From positions 1,380,001 to 1,412,000 of the forward strand of contig NZ_CP047931.1 in the NCBI RefSeq assembly GCF_014280175.1: DNA of 32,000 nucleotides, written 5' to 3'. Position numbers and translations under genes: made by a program. The first letter of the stretch is position 1. Every line of letters begins with the position of its first letter. Source of the DNA: Synechococcus sp. A15-28 (GTDB lineage Bacteria > Cyanobacteriota > Cyanobacteriia > PCC-6307 > Cyanobiaceae). The notes under the pieces were generated by a model, which was not told the DNA's origin, did no database searches, and was given only the letters and a program-made list of their open reading frames with translations. Below, piece after piece: positions 1 to 14,168 of this stretch.

Positions 1-67
1 TGGATCAAAACTGTGTCTTTGGGTCACAACAGCCGCTTAGAGCACTATCCCTAGTGCTTCAGGGCAC

Positions 68-97
68 AAAAAAACCCGGTGTGACTCGCACAACGGG
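68..97 (-). terminator. Rho-independent terminator candidate (minus strand)
   Basis: CCCGGTGTG (75-83) pairs with CACAACGGG (89-97): 9 bp with 1 mismatch and a 5-nt loop. The A7 run at 68-74 gives U7 after the stem on the minus strand. Confidence 0.5.
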
Positions 98-290
98 CTG
101 GGTGATGGGGGAAACCTAAATATGGCCTAACCACCTAGTACTGACCAGCCCCACATATGGTGTCAACAAGCGCAGCTCAGATCTGCACCACACAATTGAG
201 GAACCGTCCTGTTTTGGCACAAATGAGTCCAACGAGGTTAGTTTTGTCGAGTCCGGCCGGGTGATGGGGATCAGCCGAATGGATTAAAGA

Positions 291-319
291 CCTCGGGGAT
301 CTCTCCGGGGTTTCTTTTT
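291..319 (+). terminator. Rho-independent terminator candidate (plus strand)
   Basis: CCTCGG (291-296) pairs with CCGGGG (305-310): 6 bp including one G:U, with an 8-nt loop. It is followed by TTTCTTTTT (311-319). Confidence 0.5.
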
Positions 320-381
320 GTCCGCCTCGTCGCCGATGTAGATCCAGGCAGCACCCTCCAGGGCCTAACGGCTCCAAGGGA

Positions 382-768
382 GGGGGGCTACTGAGGCCGC
401 GAGAAGAACGCTGTCCTTCCCGAGCGATACGACCATCTGCACAACCAAGTTCGCAGCGCTACTGAGCTTCTCGGCGAACGCACCAAGTCTTTTCAAGATT
501 CCATTGCACAGAACAGTGTCTCCCACGATCGCTCTCGCAGGAGACAGGGGTTCTGCCAGCTTCGGATCGCTCTCCCGAGGCCGTCGCGTGTGGATGAACT
601 CCACATGTCCGCACAGAGCAAATATGGAGCCAAGCAGCGTGTTTGGCAACACGTCTTTTGGTCATTTTTGGATTCCAGGAAACGTTAGTGAAGGCTTGTG
701 AATCAGGTATAAGACAACACTGAAAGCTGGAAGTTCACCCTTTTACTTCAGCTCTGTGGTCTTAACCG
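382..768. repeat. Copy A of a ~390-nt structured non-coding repeat (candidate ncRNA, strand unresolved)
   Basis: Homologous to 6785-7176. The core (about 505-690) is near-identical; the 5' part is more diverged. Indels break every reading frame between the copies. Two hairpins carry compensatory substitutions. Confidence 0.7.
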
Positions 769-772
769 TCGA

Positions 773-988
773 TCATGTTTGACGTTCCAGACTCAGCAGA
801 CTGCGCCTGGCTTGAGCGTCCTCTTGCTTTGCCTCTTCAGCTTCGGCGCGTAGAAAACGCTTTCTTTGAGCGGATTCATAGCCACTCAGGTCTGGCTGCT
901 TCTCCTCGGCTGGTTTGGGCTTTGGCTTAAGAACTGGCTTGGGCTTATCCAAACCCATCAAAAGTGGGTGGATTCCTCTACGACTCAT
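773..988 (-). CDS. Hypothetical small Lys/Pro/Glu-rich protein (71 aa)
   Basis: Open frame with a plausible charged composition. No recognisable family. Confidence 0.3.
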   Translation of the reverse strand: MSRRGIHPLLMGLDKPKPVLKPKPKPAEEKQPDLSGYESAQRKRFLRAEAEEAKQEDAQARRSLLSLERQT

Positions 989-1344
989 TTGTTTGATTTG
1001 TTACGCGGTTATCGCGACGTGATCTTCCCGACCCAATCGCATGAATAGATCATGTTGGATCAAAATTTTATTCGTGGTATTGATGAAGACATTTGAAGAC
1101 AACTGTCGACGGCTTAGCGCCTAGGGCGGGGTTAATGGCTTCGCTGTGCTCTCTGGTGCTGGTCCACCACTTTTTTGGAGGATCTTGAACGCCTCGGATC
1201 TATCTGAGAGGCGTGTAACCCTTCTCTCGGTCATCTAGGTCGAGTCGGATAAGACTCTCCGCTCGCCGTAGCCACTTCTGTCTTGATGGACCTGGCGACC
1301 CAAGTCAAAACCCTCTAAAAAACATTTACAGGTTCGGTGTAGCA

Positions 1345-1518
1345 ATGGCTCTTCCCAAGTGGGACACCATGACTGACGAGAGTCAGGCCATGGTCAAGAA
1401 GGTCGGCCTCATCGGTGGTGGAGGCCTCCTCCTGCTTGCCTTCAGCAAGATGCTTTTACCTCTGACCCTGCTCGGCGGAGGTGGCTACGTCGCCTGGCGT
1501 GCCCTCAACAAGAAGTAG
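1345..1518 (+). CDS. Hypothetical small membrane protein (57 aa, Gly-rich TM segment)
   Basis: ATG-initiated ORF below the track cutoff: MALPKWDTMTDESQAMVKKVGLIGGGGLLLLAFSKMLLPLTLLGGGGYVAWRALNKK. It has a hydrophobic core with basic flanks. Confidence 0.4.
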   Translation: MALPKWDTMTDESQAMVKKVGLIGGGGLLLLAFSKMLLPLTLLGGGGYVAWRALNKK

Positions 1519-1523
1519 GCGGC

Positions 1524-1670
1524 GTGGAAGACAGCACCAATAAGGCCAGACGAAGACTTCTCATCTGGGCCATCAGCATCAATGTCGTCGCTTGGGGCGG
1601 CTACTTCTATCTGACCAAGGTCATGGGATTCGACTACGAGCTGATGAGGCAGGCCAGGCTGGACGGTTAA
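1524..1670 (+). CDS. Hypothetical small membrane protein (48 aa, GTG start)
   Basis: It starts 6 nt after the previous stop. A single TM segment (RRRLLIWAISINVVAWGGYFYL) is followed by a charged tail. Confidence 0.3.
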   Translation: MEDSTNKARRRLLIWAISINVVAWGGYFYLTKVMGFDYELMRQARLDG

Positions 1671-1772
1671 GGAGCTAGAGCACGTCGGGCCTTAGCTGAT
1701 TACCTGTTAAGGGGTTTGAGAGGAGATCAGCAGCTGCCAGGCCTTCTCCTTTGCTGGGGGTTGATTTCGGAA

Positions 1773-1826
1773 ACGCCCCTGATGGATTCGAACCATCGAC
1801 CGACTGCTTAGAAGGCAGACGCGCTG
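1773..1826 (-). pseudogene. Partial tRNA-Arg(UCU): 3' portion only (anticodon arm, variable loop, T-arm, acceptor 3' strand). Probably an att-site-type remnant.
   Basis: The reverse complement reads GCGCG-TCTGC-CTTCTAA-GCAGT-CGGTC-GATGG-TTCGAAT-CCATC-AGGGGCG. The T-arm and the U33-UCU-A37 loop are canonical. No matching 5' acceptor strand (CGCCCCT) or D-arm lies upstream. Confidence 0.7.
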
Positions 1827-2073
1827 TCAGTAGTGCCAGTGCTTATGAGGCACTTTTTCATGCTTGCACGGAACATTTATCTCAGACCTGCCCGTAGTTC
1901 TCGGTAGTTGAACAAAGCCACCTGCCTGCACAAGCATGTGTGCACTTGTTTCCATAGTCCTGAGAGTCAATTGCACCAGCTGATTTCGGGCGTGGTTTGA
2001 GCAGGTGCCGCTGCGGGCTTGAGCAGACCCATCAAGCCGTCATACATTGGTACTCATGTACTGGTATTGAGTT

Positions 2074-2322
2074 ATGGGTTCAGAGGGCTTCCTCCAAGAT
2101 CCATCGTCCAAGGAAACCAAGCGTTTCCATCGGGACGAGAAGAGCTGGCTCAGAGACCCGAAGGTCTTTGTCGACACAGGGATACCGATACCGGGAGAAC
2201 CACCACTCCTCAAGACAAGCGTGCACCTACGTAGGGACGCTGCAGAGCAGCTCTGGAAGGAGTTGCATCGCGTTGGCTGGCAGCAGGTGGAGCCTTGTTG
2301 GGGAGCTTCTGCTGAGCCGTAA
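2074..2322 (+). CDS. Hypothetical protein (82 aa)
   Basis: The most protein-like of four mutually overlapping ORFs in 1997-2422 (mixed charged/hydrophobic composition). The choice of frame is uncertain. Confidence 0.3.
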   Translation: MGSEGFLQDPSSKETKRFHRDEKSWLRDPKVFVDTGIPIPGEPPLLKTSVHLRRDAAEQLWKELHRVGWQQVEPCWGASAEP

Positions 2323-2461
2323 AGCGAAGGGGGTATGGGGTCAATCAGCGTCTTGTATAAACGTAATGACTTCTCAGAAATATTTTTTAAAAATTGTTGA
2401 GAAAGCCAATACAATAAAATAGTAATAAAGATTCGACTCTGGAGTCAAAGCTCTAAAAACC

Positions 2462-2602
2462 ATGGCTCAACTCTATCTAGTCGCTTTCAAAGAAAACAAT
2501 AACGGCACCGAACCTGAAGAAAATTACGCACTGCGTGAGCTACTAGATGAGCACTGCAGCTACTGCATACCAGCAGGCAAGACCGAAGTATTCGGTCCTT
2601 AG
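2462..2602 (+). CDS. Hypothetical small protein (46 aa)
   Basis: ATG ORF MAQLYLVAFKENNNGTEPEENYALRELLDEHCSYCIPAGKTEVFGP, lying immediately upstream of the next same-strand ORF. Confidence 0.3.
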   Translation: MAQLYLVAFKENNNGTEPEENYALRELLDEHCSYCIPAGKTEVFGP

Positions 2603-2617
2603 ACACCAAAGCAAAAG

Positions 2618-2983
2618 TTGGCTGAAATCTGCTGGCTCACTCAAGAGATCGAGTACTACAGCAACGATTACTGGGAACCAACTGATGCTGCGTCTCAGCT
2701 GACTGTGAAGTGGGGGTGCAGCAGGCGAACGAGTCTGCGTGACCTAGAAATCGCTCAGAGTGAACTAGCGAACGCCTTGGACTCGGTTGAGCTTCAGCAG
2801 ATGGTGGGTTGGTTGGCAACGCAGTATCAACGCCTGGCGGCCAAGGCTGAACGCGATGGTCAGCACGCCTCAGCTGTTGGTGCGTTGAACGCATTGCGAG
2901 CAATGGTTGTGCAGCCACAACTGGATGCGCAGTTTGCTGCTCACTTCCGTGGACGCTTCACGCACCAAACGCACTGCAGGTAA
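2618..2983 (+). CDS. Hypothetical protein (121 aa, non-ATG start)
   Basis: Helical, Ala/Gln/Leu-rich sequence. The opposite-strand ORF 2637-2918 looks like a shadow ORF. Confidence 0.5.
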   Translation: MAEICWLTQEIEYYSNDYWEPTDAASQLTVKWGCSRRTSLRDLEIAQSELANALDSVELQQMVGWLATQYQRLAAKAERDGQHASAVGALNALRAMVVQPQLDAQFAAHFRGRFTHQTHCR

Positions 2984-3020
2984 ACATCGGTTTAAAATAA
3001 TAAGTCAATGGGATGAGGGA

Positions 3021-3236
3021 GTGGAGATTAAATCCTTTCTGATTATTGTTGGCGCGATAATCACTGTTGCATGTCCAGTAGCTAAAGCTGCTGAAGAAGA
3101 TGACCAACAAAAGCAAGAACCAAAAATATATGAAAGATGTGTGCTGGCCGCTTCTGAAAAGAATACAAAGTGGACTCAGTACAGAGTCGACGTCAATAAC
3201 TGCAGAGCTGAATTCGGTATACCAGATGAGTACTAA
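3021..3236 (+). CDS. Small secreted protein or lipoprotein candidate (71 aa, GTG start)
   Basis: Within ORF 2907-3236. After the GTG there is a signal-like segment (EIKSFLIIVGAIITVACPVAKAAEE), then a polar mature part containing Cys residues. Confidence 0.45.
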   Translation: MEIKSFLIIVGAIITVACPVAKAAEEDDQQKQEPKIYERCVLAASEKNTKWTQYRVDVNNCRAEFGIPDEY

Positions 3237-3278
3237 TTTATTGGTTTCATTCGGTGAGTTGCCACGAAAAATATGACG

Positions 3279-3521
3279 CTAACTATTTTTTGCATGGAAT
3301 TGATGTTTTTCCTCAGAGGGAATCCAGCCGGCATCTGCCAATGGATCACCTGAGCTTTGCTCTAGCTGCTCAAGATGATCAGTCGAAGGCAACATGGCCA
3401 AGCGCCACTCCAGCTCCTGCAGGTATTTTTTGCATTGGTCAGCGCGTTGTTGATCACCAACACTGGTGAAATATTCAATTCGAACTTTCTCCCAGAGAAC
3501 TGCATACCCATAGTCGGACAT
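3279..3521 (-). CDS. Hypothetical protein (80 aa from the MSDYGY start)
   Basis: ORF 3279-3548. The internal ATG at 3521 begins a well-composed sequence. Confidence 0.45.
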   Translation of the reverse strand: MSDYGYAVLWEKVRIEYFTSVGDQQRADQCKKYLQELEWRLAMLPSTDHLEQLEQSSGDPLADAGWIPSEEKHQFHAKNS

Positions 3522-3819
3522 GCTTCTGAGCCGTACTCGAGAGCCCATTGAGATAAATTAGTGGTTTTTGACCCTAGTTATCGGAGAACCGCTGCAAAAT
3601 GCTTTTTGTCACAAAACATTTTCGTACTATCCGTACTGAGATTAAACAGAGCACTCCTGTAACAAACGATACTACGCAAAAAGACTGCACTGTCTGAAGC
3701 TAGCCACGATTATTCCAATTAGTTTCCAATGCTCATACGTGTAGTAGTTTGATGAGTATAGATACCTGTTGCTATTCAGCTATTTTAAGGGGCAGAACGT
3801 AAACAGCGATATCCAGCCA

Positions 3820-4002
3820 ATGGCGAAGCGCCGTTTCTTAGACAACCGTCCGCTGACCGACGAGCAGGGACTGACTGCGCTGATCGTGATGGGCGTTGGC
3901 TTGACCACCGGAGCCATCTTTACGACTTGCTTTTTGGCACTGAGCTCGTCTCCTGCTGCGATGTGGCACGAGCTATGGCTCTCAGGGCAACTCAACTTTT
4001 GA
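3820..4002 (+). CDS. Hypothetical small membrane protein (60 aa from the MAKRRF start)
   Basis: ORF 3769-4002. The ATG at 3820 is followed by a basic N-terminus and one TM segment (LTALIVMGVGLTTGAIFTTCFLAL). Confidence 0.4.
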   Translation: MAKRRFLDNRPLTDEQGLTALIVMGVGLTTGAIFTTCFLALSSSPAAMWHELWLSGQLNF

Positions 4003-4303
4003 GCGTCTGCAGCTATAGCTCAGAAGGCTGTCGTCGATTGATTAGTGGATGCTAAGGCGTGAGCACGAGAATGGCTGGTGCCCGGAGGTGGCTTGATGTG
4101 AGAAGGATGGTTGATCGACGCCAACGACTATTAGGTGTGGCGGTTCTAAAGGGATGAATCTGCTTGGGTCAGTAATCCAAAGGTTTTCGCCGACTGGCTC
4201 GCCTGTGCACTGCTCAGGGCATCATCAGCAGGGTTTGGTGGATAACCAGAAGCAATCCAACGTCTGCTGACCTGATTGGACGCCCAAAGAGCGATCAAGC
4301 ACC

Positions 4304-4327
4304 AAAAAAGGGGCACCGAAACACCCC
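4304..4327 (-). terminator. Terminator-like hairpin (minus strand) inside a ~630-nt non-coding stretch
   Basis: On the minus strand GGGGUG pairs with a partner strand ending in CCCC: 4 G:C plus 2 G:U pairs and a 6-nt loop, followed by U6 (the A6 run at 4304-4309 on the plus strand). Confidence 0.35.
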
Positions 4328-4634
4328 TGAATTCCGATTTGGGTCTGTTAATCCGTTACCAGGACCTCGCTACTTCTAACCAGATCCACAAAACGGAGCG
4401 TATGACTGGAGTTTAGAGATACAGACAATCCAGAACAACGTGGTTATGGTCCTGAAAACACCATCCCCTGCATCCACGAGGCAAAGTCATATGTAAGAGA
4501 AAATCAAACTTGAATACCAGGCAGACATCCTCTTCTATAAATGTGCCTCTGTTGGGGAGGACTGGGAGGAAGAGTGATCTTTGAAACATTTTCTTTTTGC
4601 TATGGATGATATGATCGTTATCATTTAATCGATT

Positions 4635-4937
4635 ATGTCGTTTCTGACTTCTGTTCGGACAATAGTGAAGGAGGGCGAGGTCGAAAAGTATGTCGAGGCA
4701 GTTCGCGCGTGGGAAGCACCTACAGATATGAATGGGTATTTTGCCCAAACAGGTGAACGATCCTTTGTCTTCACGGGGGTCTTCAAGGAAAAGGAGTCTC
4801 TTGTGGCGGCAAGACCTCAGATGATTGCTCATCTGGATTCTGTAAGAGACCTTCTTGAAGAGATCTCTGCTGATCTTGGTGTTACGGATCCTGTTTCCGG
4901 TCCAGTACTTGTCGAAAAACTGAACTGGTGCACCTGA
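4635..4937 (+). CDS. Hypothetical protein (100 aa), possibly an ABM/Dabb-fold small protein
   Basis: Clean composition (MSFLTSVRTIVKEGEVEKYVEAVRAWEA...). The overlapping minus ORF 4413-4832 is Cys/His/Arg-rich and looks spurious. Confidence 0.6.
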   Translation: MSFLTSVRTIVKEGEVEKYVEAVRAWEAPTDMNGYFAQTGERSFVFTGVFKEKESLVAARPQMIAHLDSVRDLLEEISADLGVTDPVSGPVLVEKLNWCT

Positions 4938-5045
4938 ATCAGTGCAACGTCGTTATGCCTTGGGAAAGAGAAGATTGGGAATGAACGGAAAACTACTGGT
5001 CATCGGAATTGTCTTCTTCTTCCTTCTCATCTTTATGTATGAGTC

Positions 5046-5276
5046 TTGGATGATGCGAGGTCTTCCTCACTGATTAGACCTTCACCCTTTAATTACTTGT
5101 CAGTGCATATTAAAAACAAGTGGATTAGGTCTGCTCTATTCGCATCATCAGGTCTGATGCTTGCGATTGGCATCACCAAAACGGGAGACCAGGCAAGTGC
5201 CCTGATAGTGATAACCGGAGGATTAATATCTCTCGCCGCCCTAGTGAGTCGAGTTCCCGATCAAGAGCAAGAATGA
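5046..5276 (+). CDS. Hypothetical membrane protein (up to 76 aa, start uncertain)
   Basis: Two hydrophobic segments. Its stop overlaps the next start (ATGA at 5273-5276). Confidence 0.4.
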   Translation: MDDARSSSLIRPSPFNYLSVHIKNKWIRSALFASSGLMLAIGITKTGDQASALIVITGGLISLAALVSRVPDQEQE

Positions 5277-5587
5277 AAAACGTCTTGGTCGCCATTCCCT
5301 TACTCTTGATTGCTAGTCCTTCGATGACGAGACCTCTAGCCCCCGATTCGTGTGCTTCTTACGCACAATCATTTCACAGCGTTGTGGATCAGATCAAAAG
5401 ATTTAATGGCATGGCATTGACTTACCCAGGAGTCGAGGCAGAGCGCAATCGATTAAGATTTTATAACCAGATGAATAAGAAATTAGCACCCTTAATATCT
5501 TGTCTAGAAGATCACGAAAGCGAGATTTTGAAATATTACCAACAGGTTAAAGGCATGACAGATACTCAGATCAATAGTTTTCAATGA
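5273..5587 (+). CDS. Hypothetical secreted protein (104 aa)
   Basis: N-terminal signal-like segment (MKNVLVAIPLLLIASPSMT) followed by a polar helical mature part. Confidence 0.55.
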   Translation: MKNVLVAIPLLLIASPSMTRPLAPDSCASYAQSFHSVVDQIKRFNGMALTYPGVEAERNRLRFYNQMNKKLAPLISCLEDHESEILKYYQQVKGMTDTQINSFQ

Positions 5588-5765
5588 AAATAGATGACGA
5601 TCTTTTTCAAGCACGGCAACCAGATTATGCCGCTGTGAATATCAATCCCTCCCAATAGGTATCACTAGGAACCATTCTTCATTATTTCTTTAGTAAAAGT
5701 CCTTTCGTAGTGGGGACTTTTATGGTTTTCAACCTCTTAGGTTCGATGCCCCAAAACCTACGTCC

Positions 5766-5978
5766 ATGTCCCCCACTGACCTCTCATCGCTCAAGTGGGG
5801 CGACGACGGCGAATTGTCTTCTCAAGACACCTGGAACCTGGTCAACCGACTCACCAAGGTGGAGGATGAGACCAAGGCATCAAACCTGCTGCACCTCTCC
5901 TCAAAGCACTCTCATGGGGAGCACCGCAAGAAGCGGAGCACTCTGGAGTTTGCGCTTCCAACAGTGGCCGGTTGTTGA
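5766..5978 (+). CDS. Hypothetical protein (70 aa)
   Basis: ATG ORF with hydrophilic composition. The overlapping ORF 5710-5997 is Pro/Ser/Arg-rich and less protein-like. Confidence 0.35.
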   Translation: MSPTDLSSLKWGDDGELSSQDTWNLVNRLTKVEDETKASNLLHLSSKHSHGEHRKKRSTLEFALPTVAGC

Positions 5979-6014
5979 GGAGCCGGTCCCGCCTTAATCA
6001 CAAACAGGCGACAG

Positions 6015-6248
6015 ATGAACCGCGACTACATCGACTGGCTTACTTCAATGCTAAATAACCGTGGTGTCTGGGATCGGCAGATCAACGTCTGGATGTCGGG
6101 CTATGCGCCGCTACCCGAAGAGATCGACTTACAGCACTGCAAGGAAATGCAGCAGCGGTGTGTGGTGCGGGACTGCCCTGACGGCGTGCTGGGAATGTTA
6201 TGGCGGTGCCAGGAACCCAAAGGTTCCAACGTTGTTTCAGGTGGCTGA
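6015..6248 (+). CDS. Hypothetical Cys-containing protein (77 aa). Its C-terminal half has a truncated paralog at 8118-8231.
   Basis: ATG ORF. The frame is supported by the paralog fragment, which stays open in the same frame (LP[E/D]EIDL[Q/E]HC...VVRDCPDGVLG). Confidence 0.55.
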   Translation: MNRDYIDWLTSMLNNRGVWDRQINVWMSGYAPLPEEIDLQHCKEMQQRCVVRDCPDGVLGMLWRCQEPKGSNVVSGG

Positions 6249-6279
6249 CGTCGATACCGGCACCATCAACTGGATCAAC

Positions 6280-6315
6280 GCTGACCTGGTGACCCACATC
6301 TGTCCAAGGGTCTGA
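6280..6315 (+). repeat. 36-nt repeat, copy 1. Reads ADLVTHICPRV-stop in the +1 frame relative to the upstream gene.
   Basis: GCTGACCTGGTGACCCACATCTGTCCAAGGGTCTGA versus 6694-6729: 32 of 36 bases identical. Confidence 0.8.
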
Positions 6316-6398
6316 TCGACACCGCTATTGGGGTAACCAGCACGACATCGCTTTTGCGCTTGTCAGGCCAAGGTCGCGGGGAATTTAAGTGCTCTCTT

Positions 6399-6698
6399 AT
6401 GGCCCGCTTCTTGATCCATTGGTGCGCTCCAGATCCCACCAACGAGAAGTACACGCAGGCGATCGTTGACTACATCAAAGGCGGAAAGCCTATGGATGAG
6501 TACGCGGGCTTCAAGGTGTTGGCACGTCAGATCCACCCTCACCTCGGTGGTGGCTGTCTTTTGGTAGAGGCCGACAACCTCGTAACAGTCCAGAAACACA
6601 CTTACCCCTGGACCAAGGGTCTCGGCGTTACCGCGACGATTACTCCTGGTCTCAGCGATGAGGAGTATGTCGAGCTTGAAGAGAGCATGAGCAGCTGA
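6399..6698 (+). CDS. Hypothetical protein (99 aa from the MARFLIHW start)
   Basis: ORF 6354-6698. The ATG at 6399 is followed by well-composed sequence (MARFLIHWCAPDPTNEKYTQAIVDYIKGG...). Confidence 0.55.
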   Translation: MARFLIHWCAPDPTNEKYTQAIVDYIKGGKPMDEYAGFKVLARQIHPHLGGGCLLVEADNLVTVQKHTYPWTKGLGVTATITPGLSDEEYVELEESMSS

Positions 6699-6729
6699 CC
6701 TCGTGACTCACATTTGTCCGAGGGTCTGA
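6694..6729 (+). repeat. 36-nt repeat, copy 2. It overlaps the stop codon of 6399-6698.
   Basis: GCTGACCTCGTGACTCACATTTGTCCGAGGGTCTGA. All four differences from copy 1 fall on third positions of the LVTHICPRV frame and are synonymous. Confidence 0.8.
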
Positions 6730-6784
6730 CAGCCCCTTCTATCGGCTGGGCTGACTCTCTGCAGCCTTACCGAAGCAATGATGT

Positions 6785-7176
6785 GGGGCGGCGGAACCGC
6801 GAGGAGAACGCTGTTCTCCCCGAGCGATGCGGTGTCTGCATTCACAAGCTCGTACTGATGTAGAGCTGTGCATCAAATGCACTAACTCTTTTCAGGTTTA
6901 TGGCACAGAACGTTGTCTCCCGCGATCGCTCACGTAGGAGACAGGGGTTCTGCCAGCTCTCGGATCGCTCTTCCGAGGCCGTCGCGTGTGGATGAACTCC
7001 CCATGTCCGCGCAAAGCAAATATGGAGCCGATCCGCGTGTTCGGCAACAGTCTTTTGGTCATTTTTTGATTCCAGAAAATCTCCCATGAAGCCCTATGAA
7101 TCTGGTATGGGAGGACACAGACAACAGGACGCTCATCCTGCAAGTCACCCTTCACGACTGACTTCTCATAAGGTCT
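6785..7176. repeat. Copy B of the ~390-nt structured non-coding repeat
   Basis: Collinear with 382-768 in the same orientation. Copy B contains stops in the frame that is open in copy A. Confidence 0.7.
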
Positions 7177-7516
7177 GATGATTTGGGTTATCAGCTGTGC
7201 CCAGCCGACAAGCCTAAATCACCATGGGCGTTCCACCCTCGATTTGTTCCATGACTGATCTGTTGGCACGGATCTGATCCTGGTGTTTCTTGTCGATCAC
7301 GCCCTGGCTTGAGACGAAAAATTAGGCACCGGTTTGATTTTCGGAACTTGCAAGTTCCATCTGCAATATCTCTATTTTTCGCAAAATAGGTCCACAATGC
7401 TCGCAGGCGTAAGGATCTGGAGGTAGAAATACATCTCGATAGAGCATCGATCGGTAGATCTCGATCTGCTCAATTAGGAAATTGCAATAGGAACTCACAA
7501 CACACTCCTAATCGTA

Positions 7517-7744
7517 CTAAGCGTAATGCCGAGAAGGTCTGGCAAAACGCAGTTCACGTTCCTCCATCTGACGCTGAATACTCATCAGACGGTGATAAGC
7601 CGACTTACAACGTGGGCATTCACAAGGAATGCCACATTCTTCAAGCTGACGAAAGGCAATCATTGCTTGCTTATGCTCTTGAAGCGAATATTCAGCCACC
7701 GCAAGTAAGGCGGAGAACAAATGAATAATGCACAAAAGCTGCAA
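7517..7744 (-). CDS. Hypothetical small Cys-rich protein (48-75 aa depending on start)
   Basis: Contains CGIPCECPRC followed by a basic helical tail. TTG, GTG and ATG starts are all possible. Confidence 0.35.
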   Translation of the reverse strand: MQLLCIIHLFSALLAVAEYSLQEHKQAMIAFRQLEECGIPCECPRCKSAYHRLMSIQRQMEERELRFARPSRHYA

Positions 7745-8117
7745 ATTTTTCTGTACCAGACAGCCAATGTCCTGAATTCAACAATTCAAACTGTGTGCTT
7801 TGTCACACAGCGATCACGTCGGGCGGACCAACCAAGGCTCATGGGTCTGGACCTCGTCCATCCAATGTATGCAACCGCTTCCGTTCCAACCGCAGGTAGC
7901 GCTTGCGTTGAGCTGAGCAGAGCGCATCGGCCTCCTCCAGGTCGACGTGCCAGCCAGCGGCTGGTCGATGGTCGGCTTCCTCATGCGTCATGAACCTCCA
8001 CTGGCATCGGCACGCGCCCCCTGCTGGCTGATGATGGCTTCTTCTTAATCTGTTGCGAGTCCTAAACTATTGGTTTTTAAAAAGTTGTGCCGAGTACAGG
8101 CCGCATTAGAGGTATAG

Positions 8118-8231
8118 CCGCTACCCGATGAGATCGACTTAGAGCACTGCGAAGAGATGCAGCAGCGGTGGGTGGTGCGGGACTGCCCTGACGGCGTGCT
8201 GGGAAGGTTCAGGCGCTGGGTTAGTCGTTAG
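8118..8231 (+). pseudogene. 5'-truncated paralog fragment of the 6015-6248 gene
   Basis: About 90 nt (8121-8210) align to 6108-6197 with scattered substitutions. It is open in the same frame, but a TAG lies directly upstream (8115-8117) and there is no start codon. Confidence 0.6.
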
Positions 8232-8337
8232 GTCTGGAGCGGGGAACACTTCTGGCAGTCACGTCTGACCCATGCCTCAAAATACCGCATTGTACTGTTC
8301 CTCTAGGAGGGGTAATATCAAGAAATAGTGACATTGA

Positions 8338-8365
8338 TTGACTCGGCGTAAGTCAATTCTAATAT
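8338..8365 (+). promoter_or_regulatory. Sigma-70-type promoter candidate for the protease gene
   Basis: TTGACT (8338-8343), a 16-nt spacer, then TAATAT (8360-8365), about 22 nt upstream of the ATG at 8387. Confidence 0.4.
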
Positions 8366-8386
8366 TTTGTATGTTGCAAATTATCA

Positions 8387-9550
8387 ATGAAACAGATTAA
8401 GCCAATTGAGCTAATTATGTCTCAAGTCGAAATTGACGATATGAAGTCTGTTGTCGGCAGCGACTTAATCCTGAACATATATATATCACCAGGAGGAGAG
8501 CCTCACACAGCATGGGATGATAGAGCGCAAGAGGACGTGAAAACTATAACTAAAAAGCCGGCTGAATGGCAATATAAAGTAATGCGTGAAGCCATGGAGA
8601 GAGTCAACAGGGAATTTGATATTACCCTTAACGAGGTGGAATATGAACAGCTTTCAGACACACAAATAAAGCTAACGACCGTTCCTAATGCGGATGCCGT
8701 TAATGGCTGGTGGATTCGTCCCTGGGACGGCATTACTGATATTTATTTATCAATGACATATCAATCCGGCCTGGACGGTACTAAATATCAAGATGCCCAT
8801 GACAATCCCGATAATTACACGCATGACGAATGGGAAAAATCCGAGTGAAAAAAGATTTTTATTCATGAACTTGGCCATTTGCTTAGCCTCGAACATCCTT
8901 GGGACAAAGATGATGGAGACTGGGCAGTTGATGGACCAGACGATATGACTGAATACACATTAATGGGATATGAAAGTTTAGATGCCAGCGGTAAAACGAT
9001 GGATTGGTTCCAGGATGTAGATCAGCGCTCTTTGAGACACATATGGGATGCATCAACAGTTACTCCAGAACCAACTCCTGCTCCGGTTCCAACACCTACT
9101 CCAGAACCTGAACCTGAGCCCAACCCAGAAGCTAAGCCGGAACCTTATGACGGCATCATTGAATCGGTTAGTGGCAAAGGCAAGTTAAAAGGAACGAAGG
9201 TTGCAGATGCCTTCACTTTCGATTCATTTGAAGCATTCACAAAGCAATCTGCTGACAATATCATTGGATTTAATGCGTCGCAAGGCGACACAATTGCCGT
9301 CAGTTCCATTGCTTTCCCTGGATTGAAAGGTGTCTCCGATATCAGCTTTGCATCGACTAGGAGTAAGAAGGAATTCAAGCAAATGTCCAAGGAGGATTAC
9401 GACTTTGTATATTTTGCGAAGAAAGGTCGCCTCTACTTCGATGGAAATGGCGCAGAGAAGAACTGGGGAAACAGTGATGAAGGCGGTCTTGTGGCAATCC
9501 TGAAGGGAAAGCCTGAGCTAACTGTTGAAGACATCACACTGCTGGCTTGA
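8387..9550 (+). pseudogene. Metzincin-like zinc metalloprotease with a Pro-rich linker and a C-terminal exoprotein-type domain. One in-frame TGA (8846-8848) interrupts it.
   Basis: ORFs 8387-8848 and 8879-9550 share one frame and only the TGA separates them. Read-through gives ...HDEWEKSE*KKIFIHELGHLLSLEHPW..., with the HExxHxxxxxH motif at 8864-8896. The TPEPTPAPVPTPTPEPEPEP linker is followed by a tail containing LYFDGNG...GGLVAILKG. Confidence 0.75.
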
Positions 9551-9783
9551 TAAACCCTTAATTTAGAACTTGTGGCTTCGTCAATTATGGCGGGGTTTTT
9601 TGGTATTTCTAATGGAGATGCGTGGGTCGTTCGTATCTTGAGCGCGGAGAAATACCTTTACTGAAATCTTCACACCTTCCTAGTGAGTTGTCGGCCCACT
9701 TCTTGAACTCTTCTACTTCTCGTTTGTAGGAGTCGGACATTGGTTCATTCATTTCTTTGAATCCTTTGTTTTTGTATCAATGA

Positions 9784-9816
9784 GGTCTAGCAATGAAGGT
9801 AGACCAGATTTTTTTT
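9784..9816 (+). terminator. Terminator candidate (plus strand)
   Basis: GGTCTA (9784-9789) pairs with TAGACC (9800-9805) across a 10-nt loop. A 3-nt spacer is followed by T8 (9809-9816). Confidence 0.4.
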
Positions 9817-10125
9817 GTTTCTTACTGGCTTCTGCTTGAGCAAGTACTATTAGTTGGCGAAGTGCCTCTAAATGGGGTTCAGAAGTATAATTGTTGGTCA
9901 TTATTTTGTGATTGTGAAATGTATTGGTCTTTTACGGCACGTTGGTTAGATGACGTCTGCCATTACGTCGTGAACATTTCATAGGTGCAAAAGGTTAGGG
10001 CTGGGGAAGACCAACCAACCAGCCCTAGAGCCTGCACTAAGTCAAAATATCGCTATCCCATCAGGGACGGCTTTTTTATGCCGGTATAGCTTTTAACGAC
10101 TTCAATACCATTGGTCTGGATTGGC

Positions 10126-10566
10126 TTAAGCGTCAAACCCTTCTGCAGGGTGTACTGTTGATTCAACGATATGAAAAGACAAAAAACACTTGCCTAGATC
10201 TTGAATTTGTAGATGACCTACCACCTGGACAAATTTATATTGTAGTTCGTGGTCATGCGTAAGATCTGATAAGTTGCCTTCTAATTTAGGAGCAAGCAGT
10301 GACTCAAACTTTATTTGGGTTCCATAGATAATCCTATCTGTAAGGGTCGAAGTCGCCGCTGACTCAAGAGTCAGAAATGATTGAGGCTTTGAATACTTAT
10401 GCTCTTGTTTTAACTGCTCAATCCTGTCTTCTAATGTATAGAACTCATAAGAATCATATGGTGTAAGGTAAAGCTCATATTTAGGTGCTTCATCTCCCCA
10501 TTTCCAATGTGGCTCAAACACATTGGCGTTCATTACATAGCCTTGAATCCTAGTGAGTGTCTTCAT
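10126..10566 (-). CDS. Hypothetical protein (146 aa). Weak motif-level resemblance to phage gp2.5/DUF2815-type OB-fold ssDNA-binding proteins.
   Basis: Clean ORF in the integrase-side module. The N-terminal pattern ...NANVFEP...G.EAPKYEL.L... resembles that family, but this rests only on recall. Confidence 0.6.
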   Translation of the reverse strand: MKTLTRIQGYVMNANVFEPHWKWGDEAPKYELYLTPYDSYEFYTLEDRIEQLKQEHKYSKPQSFLTLESAATSTLTDRIIYGTQIKFESLLAPKLEGNLSDLTHDHELQYKFVQVVGHLQIQDLGKCFLSFHIVESTVHPAEGFDA

Positions 10567-10580
10567 TTTAGTTGGTCTAT

Positions 10581-10820
10581 TTAGGTTTGATTGGAAGCCA
10601 CCATTTCCTGTGATTCTGTTTGATCAATCAATGATGGGTGTAGCAAGTCCGTTGGCATACCAACATTGTGGAAGTGCCTAAAGGCAAAGACGCCAAGTAC
10701 ATAGAGTTCATTTCTCAGATCTCTATCACTAAAACCGTATTTTTCCATAGTCGCTATCGAACAACACTTGCTGTTGTTCCAGTTGTAGTCTTTTGGTGTT
10801 AAGCCTTGGTTTGATGCCAT
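10581..10820 (-). CDS. Hypothetical protein (79 aa)
   Basis: ATG ORF that ends 14 nt before the start of the downstream co-directional gene. Confidence 0.5.
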   Translation of the reverse strand: MASNQGLTPKDYNWNNSKCCSIATMEKYGFSDRDLRNELYVLGVFAFRHFHNVGMPTDLLHPSLIDQTESQEMVASNQT

Positions 10821-11143
10821 AGGTGAATACTTGGTTTAAGTAGTGGATACAAGGGTTCAACGTATGTAGAAACATGATGAATATGATGTCCATTCATCGG
10901 ACATCGCTTTCATCTAGTTTCACCTGCGGTTGAACCCTATTAGTTGTTAGTAAATCAATTCGACAATCCAATCGCTTCGCTCTTGGTGTCTCATTGACTT
11001 CTCGCTTCGCTCGAAGACAGGAAATGATTGTCTTTTAAGGAGTTTTTCCCCCTGTTTGTGTCTGGTTAAACAATCTCATTATCAAAACCCATTGCGATGA
11101 CAGGGATTGTGTCAACAAGTGGTATCGATTGTGTCAGGCGACC
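10821..11143. promoter_or_regulatory. Repeat-rich intergenic region: nested inverted repeats plus two pairs of direct repeats. Candidate operator, origin or recombination site.
   Basis: GGGTTCAAC (10853-10861) pairs with GTTGAACCC (10929-10937). These enclose GATGTCC (10885-10891) paired with GGACATC (10899-10905). TCGCTTCGCTC occurs at 10972 and 11002. GATTGTGTCA occurs at 11105 and 11127, and a partial GATTGTC at 11026. Confidence 0.5.
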
Positions 11144-11980
11144 TTATGAGGCTGAGTTCTGGTCAGAACATTTTGGCTTTCCGAACAGTTCGTCATATCG
11201 TTTTTGACGCTCCTCTTCTCGGTCCTTCAATTTTGTCATCTTCTGTTCCATCAATGCACAGAACTCTTCCGTTTCTGCCTCATCCCAATATTCAATCGGT
11301 ATGCCTTTGGCATGTATGAACTCGTAACCGACATCTAAAAACTTAGATGGCTGCTCATATGGTTTGTAATACTTAGACGTGCGTTGTTCTAATGGGAGTT
11401 CTTCATTGCGTAGATATTCCTCTCTGGCAAGTTTCTTCTGTTCTCTTTGTTCTGGTGTTAATGGCTTGTAATTCAGGCAAAGAGACTGGAATATCTGACT
11501 CATTGAACGCTCTGTTGCAGTGCTATGGCAATGAATCTTGTTCCAAGCAGTGCTTGTGATATCCATAGTCAATCTTTTTTCAGCCTTCCCACTTCGGTAT
11601 TGAATCCTCTTGATAATCGGCTCTACATATAGGACGTTCCACTTATAACGATCAATTGCTTCTGGACTTCTCAACTCCGCATAGCCTGCACTGAGAATTC
11701 CAGGCAAGGATTTCAAGATCATCCTGCTTGCCATTTCCCACTTATGTATTTCAGCATTACTTGCCATTTGTTGAAGCCGTTCAGCTGCTTCGTTTGATAT
11801 GTAGAAAGATATTTGCTTTCTGGTGACTATTACCCCATTGGGTTTACCATCTTTTGCGACCTTTCTGAAGTCACGACTGCCATCTTTTCTTCGTTTTCGG
11901 TTGTATTTTTGGTGTTTGGTGAGTTTTTTAGGCATTGGTATAGGTAATGAATTTTTCTGTGTGACTTTTTTGCGCGTCAA
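11144..11980 (-). CDS. Basic DNA-binding protein candidate with two ribbon-helix-helix-like motifs (278 aa; alternative ATG at 11935)
   Basis: Lys/Arg-rich N-terminus. Two strand-helix-helix patterns (KQISFYISNEAAERLQQMA... and KRLTMDITSTAWNKIH...SMSQIFQSLCLNY). Acidic, coiled C-terminus. It lies directly downstream of the integrase. Confidence 0.65.
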   Translation of the reverse strand: MTRKKVTQKNSLPIPMPKKLTKHQKYNRKRRKDGSRDFRKVAKDGKPNGVIVTRKQISFYISNEAAERLQQMASNAEIHKWEMASRMILKSLPGILSAGYAELRSPEAIDRYKWNVLYVEPIIKRIQYRSGKAEKRLTMDITSTAWNKIHCHSTATERSMSQIFQSLCLNYKPLTPEQREQKKLAREEYLRNEELPLEQRTSKYYKPYEQPSKFLDVGYEFIHAKGIPIEYWDEAETEEFCALMEQKMTKLKDREEERQKRYDELFGKPKCSDQNSAS

Positions 11981-12129
11981 CAGCGCTTTCTGATCATTGC
12001 AAGCCGAGCAGCTAATGTGCCTCTAATCGCGAGCGGAGAGCCGCTGCAGGATGCTTTGGTGATTGTGAATATGGGATTCATCGTTCTCTCCATTTGAGGC
12101 GGGTTGTGGGCGATCCTGAGCGGAGCTGG

Positions 12130-13458
12130 TCAAAACAGTTCGATCACTTTCTTTTGAACTTTCTTCCTTCCGATCGGGAGCTTCGTCAGATCTCTACTCT
12201 TTCTAAGGACATCAAGTCTGCTGTAGTGCTTCATCAAGATCTTCGGGTCGTGTCCCGTCATCATTGAAAGAACAGCGATCGGAGTGTCTTGCATCAACTT
12301 GTCATCTACGAAAGATGACCGGAGTGAATACAGTGTGTATGGCTTGTACGAAGCCCAGTGTCCTTGCAGCTCTAGGTTCCTCATCGCAAAAGCCCAGCAA
12401 CGGCTGTACTGGGTGTAGTCAAACGGACGACACTCGTTGTAGAAGTTTCCAAATACGTGAGCATTCTTGTTCCATATCTTTGAAACCGAAGATGAGAAAT
12501 GACGCTCCGCGTACTCCTTCTGGTACTGAAACCATTCAGCCAGTTGAGTCCCACAGTTCGCAGGAACCTGCCTTGGCTCACCTGTCTTGGTCTTTCTGAC
12601 GCTGATCTCAGCCACAAGATGCTCCCTATTGTCTGAGCTGCTCCGGGGACCCATAGAGATGATGTCCACGTCACTCCACCTCAGGCTCTGTAACTCCTTA
12701 GGTCTCAGCCCAGAGTTTTTACCCGTCATCACGAACGCATAAAAACACCTCCTCCAGTACGGCGATCGGTGATTGTTGACGCGATCTGACTCGCGGATGA
12801 ACACCTCTCTGATCCAGGTGTGAATCTTGCGCCAATCCTCCGGACTGATCGGAGGGTTTGCCATCAGGTCCTCAGCTCTGACTCGGACAGACGGCACGAG
12901 TTTGAGGGCTGCGACATCAGGCTTGATCTGACGCTGCTTCTTGCACCAGTTGAGCCAGTTGGTGATGACCGTGGTTTCGTTCCGCTGATTGACCTTGGTG
13001 GTCTCCTTGCGGAACAGCACGTAGTCGTCAAAGGTCGTCTCAGTGATCTCCTGCGTGTAGGCCACGCCCTTCCACTTCAAGTAGGCAGAGACGTGTCGGA
13101 GCTTGAACTCCTTGGAACTGAGAGAAAGCTTGGAAATGATCTCGGCATCAACTCTCCGCCTCTCCTCTGACAGGAAGGCATCAATCGAGGCATCAACGGT
13201 TGCCTTTTTGGTGCGACGAGTTGGCTTGACCTGTACCTGACCGCTCGTGATGAGCTGCTGAGTGGTCCTCATCTCAGACCAGACGTTCATTGCCATCGCA
13301 ACGGCGTCGGCTTCAGAGAGGGCTTCCTTCAGTCGCCTCTGTCGATAGCCACCTGAACCGTCAGGTTCTCGGTAGTACCAAGCCGATTCATCACGTGAAT
13401 AGGTGATGACCTCAGCTCTCCCATCAAGGACCTTTCGGCGCTCTGCAATCTTCGGCAT
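12130..13458 (-). CDS. int: Site-specific tyrosine recombinase / phage-type integrase (442 aa)
   Basis: Catalytic-domain landmarks: GLRPKELQSLRWSDV (Arg I), a VRKTKTG hairpin Lys, YSLRSSF (Arg II) and MTGHDPKILMKHYSRL (His and the Tyr nucleophile). A long N-terminal DNA-binding region precedes the catalytic domain. Confidence 0.9.
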   Translation of the reverse strand: MPKIAERRKVLDGRAEVITYSRDESAWYYREPDGSGGYRQRRLKEALSEADAVAMAMNVWSEMRTTQQLITSGQVQVKPTRRTKKATVDASIDAFLSEERRRVDAEIISKLSLSSKEFKLRHVSAYLKWKGVAYTQEITETTFDDYVLFRKETTKVNQRNETTVITNWLNWCKKQRQIKPDVAALKLVPSVRVRAEDLMANPPISPEDWRKIHTWIREVFIRESDRVNNHRSPYWRRCFYAFVMTGKNSGLRPKELQSLRWSDVDIISMGPRSSSDNREHLVAEISVRKTKTGEPRQVPANCGTQLAEWFQYQKEYAERHFSSSVSKIWNKNAHVFGNFYNECRPFDYTQYSRCWAFAMRNLELQGHWASYKPYTLYSLRSSFVDDKLMQDTPIAVLSMMTGHDPKILMKHYSRLDVLRKSRDLTKLPIGRKKVQKKVIELF

Positions 13459-13556: not shown

Positions 13557-14168
13557 TCATGGTGTGCGATAGATCCGCTGCAGCAGCCACAGCGAGAACA
13601 GCAGCCCGATCAGGTGGGCGAACAGCACCTGGGTATTGCTCAGCACCGAGAGGATTTCCAGCGACGTGATCGGCAGGTTTTCGGCTGACCCCCGTCCGAT
13701 CACAGCCAGACCCTGCGTCTGATTAGCCGCCTGGATGAACAGCGGACCAACCAAGGCCTGGTAGCCCACAGACGCCAGGACCAGCCCCAGCAGATCAGCG
13801 AACAAGCCGCGTTTGATCAGCCGCGAGGTCTCACCGCGTGAGGGGCGGGCCTCACTGCTCAGGGCCCGGCCATTGCGCACGATCAACCAGCCCTGCCAAA
13901 GGCTGTAGAGCAGCACCAGGAAAGCCAGGGTCGTCAGGGAAATTCCAGGACCGAGACCAACAGCGCGATCGGCATTGCGCGTGAGGCTGCCACCGATGGC
14001 GGTGAACAGCAGGACGCCCAGGACAACCGCCCCCAGAACCACCTGAATCCAGAAGCGGATCCAGCCCATCCGGCGGAGCCCGGCGGACAACAACTGGAAA
14101 TCGAGGCGATCCGCCATCTCTCCGGAGGTCAGTCGTTCAAACTTGCCACCAAAGTGCATCGCACGCAT
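13557..14168 (-). CDS. Conserved cyanobacterial membrane protein (DUF3611-like)
   Basis: Four hydrophobic segments in a GC-rich frame. The start overlaps the divergent ribF ORF, so one of the two starts is probably internal. Confidence 0.7.
   Translation of the reverse strand: MRAMHFGGKFERLTSGEMADRLDFQLLSAGLRRMGWIRFWIQVVLGAVVLGVLLFTAIGGSLTRNADRAVGLGPGISLTTLAFLVLLYSLWQGWLIVRNGRALSSEARPSRGETSRLIKRGLFADLLGLVLASVGYQALVGPLFIQAANQTQGLAVIGRGSAENLPITSLEILSVLSNTQVLFAHLIGLLFSLWLLQRIYRTP

Follow-up and report, generated by a model that had tools for sequence, protein, structure and literature searches.

Two segments of a 32,000-nucleotide (nt) stretch of the Synechococcus sp. A15-28 genome (contig NZ_CP047931.1, positions 1,380,001 to 1,412,000; the whole stretch is called the window below) are members of Cyano-2 (RF01702), a family of structured RNAs, and both are read from the minus strand. 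We refer to them as copy A (382-768) and copy B (6783-7164). The whole window was scanned against Rfam with cmscan, where the gathering threshold of RF01702 is 40 bits. Copy A was matched at 585..383 on the minus strand with 170.6 bits (E=4e-42) and copy B at 6983..6784, also on the minus strand, with 192.9 bits (E=3.5e-48), each over model positions 1-204 of 204. The copy A core is 90.2% identical to a seed member from WH8102 (NC_005070.1/1848644-1848441), and the core of copy B reaches 95.0% identity with JCVI_SCAF_1096627192266/3116-2919, a seed member from Global Ocean Sampling whose scaffold bears three Cyano-2 copies. Given full-length, high-scoring matches and seed identities of 90% and 95%, the family is known and the two copies are ordinary members of it. 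Taking identity and anatomy jointly, we consider it highly probable that both segments are Cyano-2 genes on the minus strand with the gene anatomy described below.

The family is already catalogued and is not new. It was first described by Weinberg et al. (2010, Genome Biol 11:R31; PMC2864571), who rated Cyano-2 as a likely RNA of marine cyanobacteria that is neither cis-regulatory nor a riboswitch, noted GCGA in terminal loops and a second region with a highly conserved bulge, and found the surroundings to be gene-poor, with the upstream 1 kb usually without annotated genes. Their seed holds five copies per genome in CC9605 and in WH8102, those of WH8102 (NC_005070.1) lying near 372286, 1051140, 1129611, 1132490 and 1848644. 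The copies described here share the published setting, i.e., marine Synechococcus and several copies per genome, and match every core feature without differences. The conserved unit exceeds the 204-nt model: it extends into a 5' leader hairpin that covaries, into a structured 3' tail, which comes in two types, and into conserved promoter and upstream DNA of about 115 nt. The passages of the Weinberg paper and supplement consulted here (PMC2864571) hold no mention of the leader hairpin, the structured tails or the conserved promoter DNA.

An earlier note on this DNA had described the two segments as a structured RNA without assigning a family, and full-length matches to RF01702 are what the search returned. 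The note had itself named a clean match to a known repeat or insertion-sequence family as counting against its reading, and a clean match to a known family is what was found. The note had also placed the element in the size class of transfer-messenger RNA (tmRNA) or RNase P RNA. Neither identity was retained, as ARAGORN finds no transfer RNA (tRNA) or tmRNA genes in the window and no tmRNA or RNase P RNA model of Rfam matches positions 1-8500 even at E<=1.

Coding potential and strand

The two copies are collinear, in the same orientation and about 6.4 kb apart, as the earlier note had seen. This was recovered both by aligning positions 300-1000 with 6700-7400 and by a repeat finder, which independently returns the pair (families D2 and D5). 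Segments 382-768 and 6783-7164 are 74.6% identical, against 35-40% in the flanks on either side. The centre had been called near-identical; it is the best conserved part, but with 87% identity over copy A 505-690 that wording was too strong. The plus-strand 5' third (copy A 382-504) is more diverged, as was claimed, at 67% identity, and positions 691-768 are 56% identical to copy B.

The repeat is real and non-coding, as indicated by three results. The six indels that separate the copies are each of 1-2 nt, the 61 substitutions are without 3-nt periodicity (25/20/16), and a 95-amino-acid (aa) open reading frame (ORF) on the minus strand at 365..652 is open in copy A only, being in another frame or interrupted in copy B. 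In this the earlier note was right: it had found no shared reading frame, had seen that this ORF is not kept in copy B, and had read the pair as a structured non-coding RNA gene, to which the RF01702 matches now also point. A decayed or unrecognised protein-coding gene, e.g., the 365..652 ORF, might still be argued from the uninterrupted frame in copy A and from the long stop-free runs of these GC-rich sequences, in which the longest stop-free frame across homologues has a median of 106 codons. Set against this are not only the short indels, the lack of periodicity and the broken or shifted frame in copy B, but also 22 helix pairs with compensatory types and the fact that the length-variable regions are hairpin loops, and we regard the chance of a protein gene here as vanishingly small.

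The structure analysis was based on 45 distinct Cyano-2 cores, and the upstream and leader analyses on 42-45 sequences. Searches yielded seven further Cyano-2 copies in Synechococcus genomes and about 40 in marine metagenomes. The search patterns fixed the sequence of the bulge described in the next section; in the case of genome contigs, a pattern with 19 fixed bases and a wide gap gave 120 loci, only 7 of which were Cyano-2, most of the others being chance matches in unrelated bacteria. No blastn match that would indicate a phage origin was found among 50,697 phage records, and one pattern match in IMG/VR (L121; loci are cited by such handles where they need to be told apart) was discarded as a chance match which the nhmmer profile did not confirm. 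Conservation across the family extends over roughly 380 nt (~728..349 in copy A coordinates), compared with the 204 nt of the model.

The consensus fold of the 45 cores (RNAalifold) has an energy of -31.7 kcal/mol on the minus strand; of its 33 pairs, 22 show compensatory types. On the plus strand the consensus energy is -9.5 kcal/mol. In the minus-strand sense the cells at consensus pairs hold 182 G·U against 23 A·C, and the 182 G·U cells would turn into A·C mismatches on the plus strand. On energies and pair counts, a plus-strand RNA is rejected. Fold z-scores are -2.0 (minus) and -1.0 (plus) for copy A, and -3.8 for the minus strand of copy B. The strand of the Cyano-2 RNA is minus.

The earlier note had read the RNA from the plus strand, with its 3' end in a T-rich tract. 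Under such a reading, a new family of structured plus-strand RNA, ~390 nt long, would end at the T-rich tract near 655-670. It could draw on a small plus-strand hairpin followed by a T-tract (637-663), on dyad-plus-T-run arrangements that also occur on the plus strand in several subfamilies, and on the fact that the complement of a structured RNA can form its helices too. Yet the RF01702 model matches the minus strand only, the plus-strand z-score is merely -1.0, and the family is already described, in addition to the energies and the G·U excess given above; we therefore take a plus-strand RNA to be extremely improbable. The T-rich tract is the complement of A-tracts that lie upstream of the minus-strand -35 box, and the supposed ~390-nt RNA resolves into two parts, a transcript predicted at roughly 270-330 nt and some 115 nt of promoter and upstream DNA. 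The earlier interpretation was therefore partly supported, correct in seeing a structured RNA and wrong in family, strand and size.

Helices of the core, leader and tail

The core consists, in order, of two helices, P1 and P2, both ending in a GAGCGA(U) loop, an unstructured linker, and a third helix, P3, which carries an AUCGCUC bulge; RNAalifold on the 45 homologues independently recovers P1, P2, P3 and the unpaired linker. All positions here are on the minus strand. The core of copy A occupies 383..585, with the P1 loop AGAGCGA at 572..566, the P2 loop GAGCGAU at 534..528, the P2 stem at 546..540/523..517, and, in its 3' part as placed by cmscan, the bulge at 428..422 and the apex of P3 at 421..398. 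Copy B has its core at 6784..6983, the corresponding loops at 6970..6964 and 6931..6925, and the bulge at 6828..6822. The terminal loops thus contain GCGA, and the AUCGCUC bulge of the second structured region is unpaired in the model alignment in both copies.

Two of the three stems which the earlier note had drawn belong to these helices. The stem 403-409/413-419 is the apex of P3, and its change from A:T to G:C between the copies is a true compensatory one; what had been taken for a mismatch, A407:C415, is a G·U pair on the minus strand, which in its own right points to that strand as the RNA. The invariant stem 517-523/540-546 is part of P2. The third, at 629-633/643-647, spans the -35 box and the spacer, its arms are not kept complementary in 42 homologues, and it is dealt with below as DNA.

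The invariant 7-nt bulge of P3, AUCGCUC, is the exact complement of the GAGCGA(U) loops of P1 and P2, allowing 6-7 Watson-Crick pairs, so that a tertiary contact between loop and bulge is a possibility. GAGCGA is found in the loop of P1 and/or P2 in 44 of the 45 sequences, while only 0.3% of shuffled sequences have both 6-mers, and the predicted loop-bulge duplexes range from -11.6 to -16 kcal/mol. Variants are in line with such a contact: the bulges AUUGCUC and AUCGCUU in the Weinberg seed both arise by C-to-U changes that keep G·U pairing, and the loop variant GAGCGG (L209) likewise keeps a G·U pair. For this contact we found no mention in the parts of the Weinberg paper and supplement drawn on here (PMC2864571).

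Outside the Rfam model, a leader of 28-38 nt runs from the predicted +1 to model position 1. This leader folds into a hairpin, mostly a two-tier one, which we call P0 (copy A, 586..613, GUGCGGACAUGUGGAGUUCAUCCACACGC; copy B, 6984..7011, from the fold of that copy; both on the minus strand). The fold recurs in nearly every one of 43 leaders, with each of the five leader classes represented. The outer stem of P0 starts within 0-2 nt of the predicted +1, and its sequences are unrelated between the leader classes. In the class typified by L100, 95.8% of P0 cells are paired, 8 cells are double-changed and none of 500 shuffles reaches the observed value; in the L034 and L161 classes, which MAFFT aligned out of register, P0 was judged on single-sequence folds. 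The presence of P0 at the predicted +1 in every leader class supports both a leader hairpin that the model lacks and the assignment of the start site.

The 3' tails are of two types. Copy A has type II, one long hairpin on the minus strand at 347..389 (AGC..CCCUCC...GCC-GUUA-GGC...GGAGGG.GCU), for which RNAalifold on 10 tails gives 15 pairs, 3 with compensatory changes. The type I tail of copy B (6728..6783, minus strand) contains T1, pairing UCGGU (6773..6769) with GCCGA (6746..6742); T2, GGCUG (6766..6762) with CAGCC; and T3, CAGCCC (6753..6748) with GGGCUG (6735..6730). Across 22 type I tails, T1 (UCGGY/RCCGA) is 93% paired with three covarying pairs (C-G to U-A, G-C to C-G and U-A to C-G), T3 (CAGCCC/GGGCUG) is invariant and 94% paired, and the observed score is reached by 0 of 500 shuffles. 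Since the 3' arm of T1 lies inside the loop of T3, these two helices form either a pseudoknot or alternatives, with T2 as a third hairpin. A T-run follows T3 in L128, L016, L098 and L132. Predicted transcript lengths are 270-330 nt for copy A, whose 3' end would fall somewhere between about 345 and 285, and about 287 nt (7012..6726) for copy B.

The paralogues are mosaic: copies A and B are alike in promoter, P0, P1 and P2 (87%), and differ in P3 and in tail type (67%). Each of their P3/tail types matches a different member of the Weinberg seed, suggesting that domains have been shuffled between paralogues. Elsewhere, L134 (561-1075) carries a tandem Cyano-2 pair 312 nt apart, the downstream member of which is without promoter, P0 and the first few nt, which points either to a duplicate truncated at its 5' end or to recombination between family members.

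Predicted promoter and upstream DNA

A sigma-70-type promoter is predicted directly upstream of each RNA. On the minus strand of copy A (621..649), a -35 box TTGCCA (649..644) and a -10 box CATATT (626..621) are separated by a 17-nt spacer, and this TTGCCA-17-CATATT is the sole sigma-70-like site found in positions 200-1000. The corresponding region of copy B (7019..7066, minus strand) has A-tracts at 7066..7052, TTGCCG at 7047..7042, a 17-nt spacer and CATATT at 7024..7019; this site falls one match short of the 9/12 cut-off of the scan and aligns with copy A and with the family. With +1 set at the seventh base after the -10 hexamer, transcription would start at about 614-612 in copy A and about 7012-7010 in copy B. 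Every subfamily keeps the -10 box, in the form CATATT, CATCAT, TATCAA or CATAGT, with its central A and T nearly invariant.

Upstream of the -35 box lie a conserved TTCACGGAAGA-type block and A-tracts. In copy A, column conservation over 45 rows places the two at 654..693 on the minus strand, the block reading CTTCAC... and the A-tracts AAAAATGACCAAAAG (669..655), the latter resembling an UP element. Further upstream, about 100 nt before the predicted start, is a GT-N10-AC box with the form of an NtcA/CRP-like dyad, on the minus strand at 707..720 in copy A (GTGTTGTCTTATAC) and at 7105..7118 in copy B (GTGTCCTCCCATAC). Its four end bases are conserved (G in 39/44, T in 40/44, A in 44/44 and C in 37/44) around a variable 8-mer. 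Thirty-five of 43 distinct upstream regions show the form GT-N10-AC, of which the strict version GTA-N8-TAC accounts for 11, and in 35/43 regions the centre of the box is 84-89 nt, mostly 87-88 nt, from the -10 box. RNAalifold leaves the upstream DNA (~-117 to -1) of 42 distinct regions without a single predicted pair, whichever strand is folded. The stem at 629-647 and the dyads at the -35 box were consequently dropped as RNA helices, and the rigid spacing, variable middle and lack of RNA structure fit protein-binding DNA; a protein may thus bind at the GT-N10-AC box.

The consensus of NtcA is GTA-N8-TAC, and the classical position of NtcA as an activator is -41.5, where it replaces the -35 box. 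The box shares with NtcA promoters the conserved GT(A/G) and (T)AC ends around a variable 8-mer, but it is centred near -100 and the copies in the window read GTG rather than GTA. Nor does the family show the class II arrangement, i.e., GTA-N8-TAC at about -41.5 and ~22 nt from a TAN3T -10 box, as the centre lies 87-88 nt upstream of the -10 box and a conserved TAN3T 22 nt downstream of the GT-N10-AC box is not present across the family. An upstream site of the class I type for NtcA is possible, and another factor of the CRP family is equally possible. Because of the position near -100 and the GTG, we call the box NtcA/CRP-family-like and treat regulation through it as a hypothesis.

Genomic setting and proposed role

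Both copies lie in a low-GC part of the window. GC content is 41-56% over positions 1-13,000 and 60-67% beyond 13,500, and the border is marked by a tyrosine integrase (12130..13458, minus strand, PF00589) that adjoins a DUF3611 gene (13557..14168), with the core genes past the integrase being DUF3611, Ffh/SRP54 and ARC6/Ftn2. The DUF3611 protein recurs unchanged on a metagenome contig from BATS in the Sargasso Sea (L241), again next to this integrase; in another record (L242) the genes after DUF3611 differ. The low GC, the integrase border and the BATS match place both copies in a mobile island of open-ocean Synechococcus. Cyano-2 homologues occur in Synechococcus records, and the neighbours in the window are cyanobacterial (ARC6/Ftn2, DUF3611, DUF3104 and DUF3303). 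On the minus strand at 1781-1838 there is a partial tRNA-like match (29.5 bits, model 8-63, anticodon loop CUUCUAA, Arg-UCU-like), without an ARAGORN call, which may be a remnant of an island attachment site.

This setting raises the question of whether the segments are an island repeat or recombination module, akin to a miniature inverted-repeat transposable element or to attachment-site DNA, conserved as DNA without an RNA function. Such a module would suit the multiple copies (five per genome in CC9605 and WH8102), the location of both copies in a low-GC island of 13 kb with a tyrosine integrase at its border, their mosaic make-up with a 5' part that is 87% and a 3' domain that is 67% identical, the promoterless second copy of the L134 tandem, and the threefold occurrence of GAGCGAT as double-stranded DNA, two forward and one inverted. 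It is at odds with the strong helix covariation and clear strand asymmetry, with the conserved promoter that each copy has of its own, and with the paralogues of the same genome being old and divergent, and not products of recent transposition. Terminal inverted repeats or target-site duplications were not noticed, although no dedicated search for them was made, and none of the 49 Cyano-2 loci has a tRNA beside it. We thus consider a DNA-level module very improbable.

A second possibility concerns the neighbouring genes. On the minus strand, an ORF of 71 aa at 773..988 (MSRRGIHPLLMGLDKP...GYESAQRKRFLRAEAEE...), without a Pfam match, ends 45 nt upstream of the copy A element and in the same orientation, and its homologues take the same relative position at L125, L137, L144 and L154, and other positions at L034 and L175. 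Such proximity would be expected if the RNA were derived from the 3' untranslated region of this ORF (the MSRRGIHPLLMGLD... family), or were the leader of a downstream gene, i.e., a cis-acting or processed RNA of a neighbour. However, the ORF is found within 3 kb at only 7 of ~43 loci, two of which have it placed elsewhere, the neighbours of copy B differ, and the conserved promoter stands between ORF and RNA. When ORFs within +/-3 kb of ~43 loci were clustered, no protein family was at a fixed position across subfamilies, including downstream. The absence of a fixed protein-coding neighbour, of a nearby tRNA and of a phage match argues against cis-regulation and for an independent gene, and Weinberg et al. 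had scored Cyano-2 as not cis-regulatory (PMC2864571). We judge a neighbour-dependent RNA to be highly unlikely.

Small genes recur around the loci, with DUF3303, DUF3104, DUF1651 and the unannotated MSRRGIHPLLMGLD... protein as recurrent small picocyanobacterial families. There is no large gene upstream of the two copies in the window, only small conserved ORFs (773..988, 7322..7498 and 7517..7744) with homologues at other loci; small ORFs of this kind often remain unannotated. The two upstream of copy B, on the minus strand, encode 58 and 75 aa of CxxC type without a Pfam match, and homologues stand near Cyano-2 in L155, L098 and L172 (one of them) and in L125 (the other). Convergent with copy B is a 114-aa DUF3303 gene (6354-6698, plus strand), which stops ~30 nt from where the RNA is predicted to end; L059 and L200 show this arrangement as well. 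A direct repeat of 102 nt (6107-6208 and 8117-8218, 90% identity) has its first copy within a DUF3104-family ORF (6061..6315, plus strand), and DUF3104 homologues occur near Cyano-2 in L100, L178, L144, L185 and L238.

A second conserved non-coding element of ~290 nt was observed on the plus strand at 27-320, convergent with copy A and cut upstream by the start of the window. It has the motif GGGTGATGGGG at 101-111 and 260-270, a hairpin CCCGGTGTGACTCGCACAACGGG, and an intrinsic terminator at 288-320 (CCTCGGGGATCTCTCCGGGG with TTTCTTTTT); it has no Rfam match at E<=1. Homologues of the same extent are present at seven other Cyano-2 loci (L168, L122, L185, L154, L148, L219 and L125), and in L168 and L185 an imperfect palindrome, ATCCAC-N7-GTGGAT, lies just upstream of them. 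In size and palindrome the element resembles Yfr103 as described in the literature.

Yfr103 is an abundant multi-copy non-coding RNA of marine picocyanobacteria, ~290-328 nt long, with seven copies in CC9605 (PMC5069720). It resembles Cyano-2 in size class, in its several paralogues per genome, in its occurrence in marine Synechococcus and in having its own promoter with a conserved upstream element; it differs in being present in Prochlorococcus too and in having an imperfect palindrome at -29 to -58, which copies A and B lack. The start sites reported for CC9605 (520624, 523498, 745088, 946997, 1038850, 1437033 and 2396316; PMC5069720) coincide with none of its five Cyano-2 loci (534921-535123, 913565-913767, 1290872-1291073, 1429118-1429312 and 1587566-1587776). 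The two are therefore different RNAs, and an identity of Cyano-2 with Yfr103 was rejected. RNAs of the Cyano-1/Yfr2 type (RF01701) are likewise multi-copy small RNAs of picocyanobacteria, but they are ~70 nt long, single-domain and unrelated in sequence and structure; the Rfam scan gave no Cyano-1 match in the window. At L027 a Cyano-1 match (5801-5865) and a Cyano-2 copy lie on opposite strands, 140 nt apart.

In the gene model that we propose, each segment would be a complete, independently transcribed Cyano-2 gene on the minus strand. The upstream ~115 nt of unstructured DNA would contribute a dyad near -100, the TTCACGGAAGA-type block, UP-like A-tracts and the -35 and -10 boxes, and the transcript of roughly 270-330 nt would comprise P0, the 204-nt core and a structured tail, which is the type II hairpin in copy A and the type I structure in copy B. 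Of this model, the family, the strand, the helices of core, leader and tail and the lack of RNA structure upstream are shown by the analysis, and the start site, the promoter function and the role of the RNA are inferred. The product may be a structured RNA that acts in trans by virtue of its fold and of its invariant unpaired motifs; it would more probably bind proteins or serve as a scaffold than regulate by antisense pairing of a short seed. Its 5' and 3' domains would be held together by pairing of a GAGCGA(U) loop with the AUCGCUC bulge, and the upstream dyad would control its expression, with nitrogen status as a possible signal. A large multi-domain RNA with covarying helices, invariant unpaired motifs and no fixed neighbour favours a shape-dependent role. 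Nonetheless, we suggest such a protein-binding or scaffold function, with domains docked by loop-bulge pairing, only tentatively, as a possibility that may well prove wrong. The fullest version, i.e., a ~290-nt, multi-domain RNA clamped by a kissing contact, with a pseudoknot-like type I tail and a strong UP-type promoter switched by NtcA/CRP, serving as a nutrient-responsive scaffold of which the islands of marine Synechococcus carry several mosaic copies, would go further and appears unlikely.

Several observations weigh against this picture. Two seed members, with the loops AGAGCAA and AGACUGA, would break the loop-bulge pairing; conserved complementarity is the whole of the case for that pairing, and the bulge was fixed in the search patterns. 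Weinberg et al. instead proposed GNRA tetraloops for the GCGA loops (PMC2864571). As regards transcription, one subfamily has a -10 box (TATCAA) without the canonical final T, the -35 box is weak outside the subfamily of the window, GT-N10-AC at -100 is not the classical activator position of NtcA, and the tail of copy B is without a T-run, leaving its 3' end a prediction only. In the truncated portion of the Red Sea mdRNA-seq tables that was searched, none of the listed start sites lies close to any of the five Cyano-2 loci of CC9605, a result without weight given the truncation.

The feature belongs on record as Cyano-2 (RF01702) on the minus strand and not as a new family, and what this analysis adds is an extended gene model, a prediction of promoter and start site, a candidate regulator box and the hypothesis of a loop-bulge contact. 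Cyano-2 has been an orphan RNA since 2010, and our comparison suggests that its functional unit is larger than the Rfam model. Its place among small unannotated genes and a second, RNA-like element of ~290 nt, in islands bordered by an integrase, provides a context in which its function can be sought.

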